Shown: positions 19,000 to 19,575 of the stretch, piece after piece | How the letters are laid out: each line of letters starts with the position of its first letter | Numbering within the stretch: the stretch's first letter is position 1 | NCBI RefSeq assembly: GCF_030013205.1 | Contig: NZ_CP122648.1 | DNA length: 64,000 nucleotides | Direction: 5' to 3' (one strand) | Source: Escherichia coli | GTDB lineage: Bacteria; Pseudomonadota; Gammaproteobacteria; Enterobacterales; Enterobacteriaceae | Position numbers and translations under genes: made by a program | Notes under the pieces: model-generated | Database searches by the model: none | What the model was told of the DNA's origin: nothing | Seen by the model: only the letters and a program-made list of their open reading frames with translations

Positions 19000-19078
19000 A
19001 TGCGTAAGCTTATAGGGTCTACGCATTGGTGCAATTTATTGAATTTTAGTTTTTTTTTAGGCCGGATAAGGCGTTTAT
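19000..19078. repeat. degenerate REP sequences ending in a half REP ggccggataaggcgttta
   Basis: REP-like palindromic units downstream of yhhJ; the last half-unit directly abuts the IS150 end fragment. Confidence 0.6.
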
Positions 19079-19140
19079 GAACTGACCACCAAAACCTGGA
19101 CAGTTTCAGTTAACCGGCTTTTTGATACTCAGTCCGGTAT
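19079..19140 (-). mobile_element. IS150 terminal fragment (inverted repeat plus last 11 codons of insK)
   Basis: 62 of 64 positions identical to the insK-proximal end of the complete IS150 at 47068..47131; homology stops abruptly at 19140/19141. Confidence 0.8.
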
Positions 19141-19575
19141 TCAGGGCAAGATTACGAAAGCCCGCTCCCCGCAAGGACTGACGCGAGAAATGACATGAAT
19201 CGCTCCCCTGCGGCGACTCTTGTCATAAGAGTGCCGGAGCGTTTTTCCATCAATTACAATGACGTCTTTATCATCTGAAGAATGGCAGTCACGCATCCAG
19301 TTAATAAAGCACTCGTAAAATTTTTCAGGACTGATACAGGATACAACTCTGGCAATGGTATCGTGAACAGGAATACCATTTTCAAAATCACCATATTGCT
19401 TCAAAAAATCGAGATGAGTTTCCCCAAAATCCTCTATATCTTCCCAACCTTCTGCACCAGAAATAACGGCACAAATAGTCAGCAGTAGAATATCTGACAA
19501 TTTATGCTCCACTTTCCAGGCTTGTCTGTAATCGGGGATAATAGAAATATGTTCCATCAATTTTTTAAGTTCCAT
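19141..19575 (-). pseudogene. yhhI: truncated H-repeat (ISAs1-family) transposase gene, N-terminal third only
   Basis: 144-aa [20 protein letters not shown]... matches the N-terminus of the Rhs-associated H-repeat protein as recalled; the last 14 residues are unrelated and the frame ends at the IS150 fragment. Confidence 0.8.

Follow-up and report, generated by a model that had tools for sequence, protein, structure and literature searches.

IS1397, which following ISfinder we take to belong to the IS150 subgroup of the IS3 family, is an element of 1432 bp with two ends and the genes orfA and orfB, and to our knowledge K-12 is usually described as lacking it. Its insertion is specific to REPs (palindromic units) in E. 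coli (PMC1525189). ISEc1 (H-rpt) belongs to the ISAs1 family; full-length copies are common in E. coli genomes, and the copy in the RhsB island of K-12 is H-rptB, that is, yhhI. H-rpt has reportedly never been seen to transpose (PMC3032704). In the window analysed here (the whole stretch of E. coli DNA, 64 kb), remains of both elements stand side by side at the yhhJ-proximal edge of an RhsB island. We read them as a two-layer mobile-element scar, which we assume from its anatomy to be without demonstrable function, and we put the probability of this reading at about 0.9.

The gene yhhJ, which encodes an ABC transporter permease (17863..18986, plus strand; ORF list and RefSeq annotation transferred from strain W13-16), is the last core gene ahead of the RhsB island in the window. 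The gene order runs from rbbA through yhhJ, the scar segment, Rhs-associated pseudogenes, IS1 and a frameshifted rhs core to nikR, and the DNA between yhhJ and nikR comprises the rhs core, orphan tips and immunity pseudogenes. Strain E04, which has no island, shows a clean empty site with a yhhJ-nikR gap of 8 bp, and E. coli W is without rhsB at b3481-b3485 (PMC3032704, Table 6); the stretch 18987..~26560 is therefore an accessory RhsB island. The segment made of the IS1397 fragment and ISEc1 sits wholly within the accessory island, at its yhhJ-proximal edge. A preliminary description of this DNA had placed the insertion in a REP downstream of yhhJ; an ancestral REP at that place is not supported, since the REP is itself part of the island and island-less strains have only the 8-bp gap. 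In the genome comparison, porcine O139:H1/ETEC strains match 18900..19700 with 100% identity.

The RhsB island of the window's strain is heavily decayed. With gene coordinates transferred from the RefSeq annotation of W13-16, it includes an Imm57-like pseudogene (~19750..20273), an Rhs tip fragment (~20644..20862), a yibG-like Sel1 ORF (20896..21363), IS1 (21494..22191) and the frameshifted rhs core (~22220..26364). W13-16 is 99.98% identical to the window apart from an IS2 inserted at window 20536..20540; the window has no IS2 there and therefore represents a sister strain. At the border of the island, the yhhJ 3' end together with the BIME (window 18900..19188) is just 94.8% identical to the corresponding K-12 segment (2842..3129). 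This seems low for E. coli core DNA, and may reflect divergent alleles or recombination at this border.

Directly after yhhJ lies a BIME-like repeat (18987..19077), composed of a REP-like palindrome, an A+T-rich linker and a REP half, and absent where the island is absent (E04). The REP half, ggccggataaggcgttta (19060..19077), is cut in the REP loop, and the next bases are those of an IS terminal repeat beginning TGAACTGACCACC, so the direct contact between an IS fragment and a half REP noted in the preliminary description is confirmed. The fragment is the right end of IS1397 (19078..19141, minus strand, 64 bp), with base 19142 assignable to either IS1397 or ISEc1. In a 65-bp alignment it is identical at 62/65 positions to the IS1397 of IAI39 and at 63/65 to the intact IS1397 in the window itself (47068..48499), and BLAST against an intact copy gives E = 1e-31, far above chance. 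It carries the terminal inverted repeat beginning TGAACTGACC, the last 10 transposase codons and the stop, and the encoded C-terminal peptide, EYRTEYQKAG followed by the stop, is the same as the C-terminus of the IS1397 transposase. The fragment adjoins GGCCGGATAAGGCGTTTA, which is the same REP half, met at the same point, as in three independent intact IS1397 insertions. Measured against a full IS1397, the 64 bp left here are a remnant and not a complete element. The stretch 19078..19141/2 is thus the transposase-proximal end of an IS1397, left from an old insertion in the REP loop.

Two side observations concern intact copies. The IS1397 in the window at 47068..48499 is 1432 bp long and 97.9% identical to the IAI39 copy; it splits a REP in its loop and is flanked by a 4-bp duplication, GTAA, at 47064-47067 and 48500-48503. 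In strain 95-3322, the nudE-mrcA intergenic BIME has the same REP/linker/REP layout as window 18987..19077, and an intact IS1397 occupies the equivalent REP-loop position there, in the orientation seen in the window.

IS150 was considered as the source of the fragment and rejected. A forced alignment gives ~66% identity, against 95-97% for IS1397; the IS150 of K-12 yields only a 9-bp BLAST seed and no significant match, and InsK ends in IEYRNQTYMPRV before its stop where the fragment encodes EYRTEYQKAG. BLAST of the 64-kb window finds no IS150 in it. The preliminary description had seen an IS150 end with the last insK codons at 19079..19140, and it was right that an IS end with the last codons of a transposase lies here, with coordinates off by 1-2 bp, and mistaken in the element and the gene; in related genomes the segment is part of a different element, IS1397.

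On its other side, the IS1397 fragment meets ISEc1 in minus orientation. Positions 19142..19188 correspond to ISEc1 nt 1-47 (97.9% identical to K-12) and contain an intact terminal inverted repeat, CAGGGCAAGATTACGAAAGC, with the native last yhhI codons. Positions 19189..19719 (minus strand) correspond to nt 761-1291 (95.3% identical to K-12 ISEc1), and hold the 5' 129 codons of the transposase (19189..19575), the upstream region and the second terminal inverted repeat (19700..19719). The two terminal repeats, CAGGGCAAGATTACGAAAGC and CAGGGAAAGATTACGTAACG, match at 17/20 positions and are both kept. Other ISEc1 copies, 1291-1292 bp long in their genomes, have matches to the window whose limits are exactly 19142 and 19719/20. 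Of a 141-bp query (19060..19200), positions 1-129 (19060..19188) are 97.7% identical to K-12, B and many other genomes, where they lie below a full-length yhhI, and positions 82/83-129 match the ends of other ISEc1 copies at 100%. Because the other copies, the K-12 alignment and the inverted repeats all give the same boundary, 19142..19188 is the native ISEc1 terminus. The native yhhI frame, ending in SVLAGSGLS and a stop, persists in the ORF 19152..19253 and equals the C-terminus of K-12 YhhI. The 42 bp at 19141..19182, which had been thought to match neither element, are thus the native ISEc1/yhhI 3' terminus, present in K-12 yhhI and in other ISEc1 ends. With 578 of its 1291 bp remaining, the copy is not full-length, and it is the only ISEc1 in the window. 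No target-site duplication surrounds it: the flanks, ..GGTATT (CCGGTATT) on one side and ACTAATAT.. on the other, differ, which suggests rearrangement after insertion.

The missing part of ISEc1 is nt 48-760, a loss of 713 bp with both breakpoints internal to the element. BLAST against K-12 and 13C1065T places the junction, from ISEc1 nt 47 to nt 761, at 19188..19189, and yields the collinear blocks 18900..19188 and 19189..19719; in both of these genomes 713 bp separate the two blocks. The left-hand parent sequence in 13C1065T reads GACGCGAGA up to the breakpoint and TAG beyond it, and in the K-12 and 13C1065T alignments the junction has no microhomology. As 713 is not divisible by 3, the deletion shifts the reading frame. 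The truncated ISAs1/H-repeat transposase ORF (19141..19575, minus strand, 144 aa) is native for 129-130 codons, where the preliminary description had counted about 131 in what it rightly called an H-repeat ORF, and then carries a 14-residue tail. This tail, (S) plus 14 residues, comes from translating the final 45 nt of ISEc1 in a non-native frame, up to a TGA (19141..19143) that lies across the ISEc1/IS1397 boundary. Pfam detects a complete PF13808 (DDE_Tnp_1_assoc, N-terminal) and does not detect PF01609 in the 144-aa ORF, whereas K-12 YhhI has 378 aa with both PF13808 and PF01609 (DDE); the gene has been shortened by a deletion, as previously proposed, and is not naturally short. In RefSeq/PGAP the ORF already has the status of a pseudogene ('incomplete; missing C-terminus'). 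The truncation is a separate, later and purely internal deletion of ISEc1.

The two junctions differ in how widely they occur among the 5426 complete E. coli genomes of our survey set. The arrangement of REP half, IS1397 fragment and ISEc1 end is present in 2111 of them, K-12 and B included, and the IS-fragment/ISEc1 junction stands beside a full-length yhhI in K-12, B and ~1800 further genomes. Because K-12 and B have this junction with a full-length yhhI, it is older than the truncation and unrelated to it. The alignment to K-12 and B proposed in the preliminary description goes against its own account, since the fragment/ISEc1 junction is already there. A query spanning the deletion junction is covered in ~303/5426 genomes, a count of carriers that includes at least one artefact (ATCC 8739, where two pieces were joined as one match). 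In both carriers inspected, TUM1886 and elppa9, the deletion is at the yhhJ locus with the same IS1397 flank, and the gene is a RefSeq pseudogene. The 19188/19189 junction is a clean lineage marker, which about 5-6% of the complete E. coli genomes carry.

Beyond the other end of ISEc1, from 19720 on, the DNA differs between strains with the same right flank, even among those with the same 713-bp deletion: past the ISEc1 left end there is the Imm57 pseudogene in the window, an IS630 fragment or IS1 in other deletion carriers, and a HEAT-repeat pseudogene in K-12. The window's own DNA past this end is common to only 22 genomes. The H-repeat end is therefore a recurrent rearrangement boundary, on whose Rhs orphan-tip side the DNA next to ISEc1 has kept changing. 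In this respect the locus illustrates repeated rearrangement of the DNA beside the H-repeat in Rhs islands.

Given the identities, boundaries, deletion and population distribution observed, a history in two layers can be outlined. In the first layer, ancient and common to K-12 and B, IS1397 would have inserted into the REP loop of a BIME; of this copy only the 64-bp transposase-proximal end survives, flush with the intact terminus of ISEc1, an element of 1291 bp when complete. ISEc1 may have inserted into or beside IS1397, the other side being lost later through rearrangement of the Rhs island; alternatively, a deletion or recombination adjoining ISEc1 may have brought the two ends together. 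The most economical story would be that IS1397 came first, then ISEc1 into or next to it, and then the loss. We infer the origin of this layer only indirectly, because ISEc1 has no target-site duplication here, the reciprocal junction between the ISEc1 left end and IS1397 occurs in 0/5426 genomes, and a chimeric query (yhhJ end plus IS1397 continued) finds no IS1397 at yhhJ longer than 64-65 bp in the 5426 genomes. Its best matches extending beyond the fragment come from IS1397 copies located in different BIMEs, for example nudE-mrcA. In the second layer, lineage-specific (~300/5426 genomes), the internal 713-bp deletion in ISEc1 took out the DDE catalytic domain and changed the reading frame.

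Other histories of the same junctions have to be weighed against this one. The preliminary description favoured an insertion of IS150 into a REP downstream of yhhJ, followed by one adjacent deletion in which most of the IS and also the 3' two thirds of the H-repeat gene were lost, with 42 bp unexplained. Part of it agrees with what we find, in that an IS3-family end does adjoin a REP half, only one end of that insertion survives, the H-repeat gene is truncated, and the IS150 terminal repeat has a short similar core, TGGACAGTT. We nevertheless regard it as scarcely credible, given the much closer match of the fragment to IS1397, the different C-terminal peptide, and the identity of the 42 bp as native ISEc1 terminus. 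The fragment moreover adjoins an intact ISEc1 terminus, in a junction that coexists with a full-length yhhI in K-12, B and the ~1800 others, and the K-12 and 13C1065T alignments, by placing both deletion breakpoints inside ISEc1, refute a single adjacent deletion. The corrected reading puts IS1397 in place of IS150, and an internal deletion in place of an adjacent one.

The 578-bp ISEc1 derivative might instead be a non-autonomous, MITE-like element that could be mobilised in trans by full-length ISEc1, given that both of its terminal repeats are intact and that full-length copies are common in E. coli. Against this, the derivative sits at yhhJ in both TUM1886 and elppa9, flanked by the same IS1397 fragment; among the matches listed for 18900..19700, H1-H30 all overlap yhhJ; the window has one copy, with no second locus seen in the window and the two inspected carriers; and the reported lack of any observed H-rpt transposition (PMC3032704) also speaks against it. 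We consider mobilisation of this kind extremely unlikely. A function for the 144-aa ORF, as a retained N-terminal-domain protein that might bind DNA and so inhibit or regulate the transposition of ISEc1, would have parallels in other IS families, where truncated transposases act as inhibitors or regulators. The complete PF13808 domain and the persistence of the allele in ~300 genomes would fit such a role, but the tail results from reading out of frame, the PGAP call is a pseudogene, and descent within one lineage accounts for the persistence, so that we think a functional protein improbable. Equally small is the chance we give to a joint claim, in which the relic would place IS1397 in the common ancestor of all E. 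coli with RhsB, K-12 among them, and the 578-bp ISEc1 would be a trans-mobilisable or regulatory mini-element. If true, the 64-bp IS1397 end would be an undocumented relic, and the 578-bp derivative would not be dead DNA. Under the two-layer reading, the locus is ordinary mobile-element debris of little biological weight. What is mildly new is the 64-bp IS1397 relic at the edge of the RhsB island, present without annotation in both K-12 and B; the literature searched, which did not extend to the original IS1397 papers, makes no mention of an IS1397 remnant near rhsB/yhhI.

Compared with the described systems, the locus resembles each in part. IS150 of K-12 (insJ/insK) is likewise annotated as IS3-like, and its EYR motif near the transposase C-terminus and the short core in its terminal repeat are similar to those of the fragment; the fragment differs in its ~66% identity over 65 bp and in a C-terminal peptide unlike that of IS150. 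With IS1397 the likeness is much closer, at 95-97% identity to intact copies over the terminal inverted repeat and the final 10 transposase codons. Unlike those copies, however, the yhhJ locus is missing the second REP half and the second IS end, and its fragment is fixed at the RhsB island edge, K-12 included. With H-rptB/yhhI of K-12 RhsB, the window copy of ISEc1 shares the locus, the yhhJ-side flank and the terminal repeats, and the 578 bp kept are 95-98% identical. In contrast to K-12, the window copy is without nt 48-760 and hence without the DDE domain, and beyond the other end of ISEc1 an Imm57-like pseudogene stands in the window where K-12 has a HEAT-repeat pseudogene.
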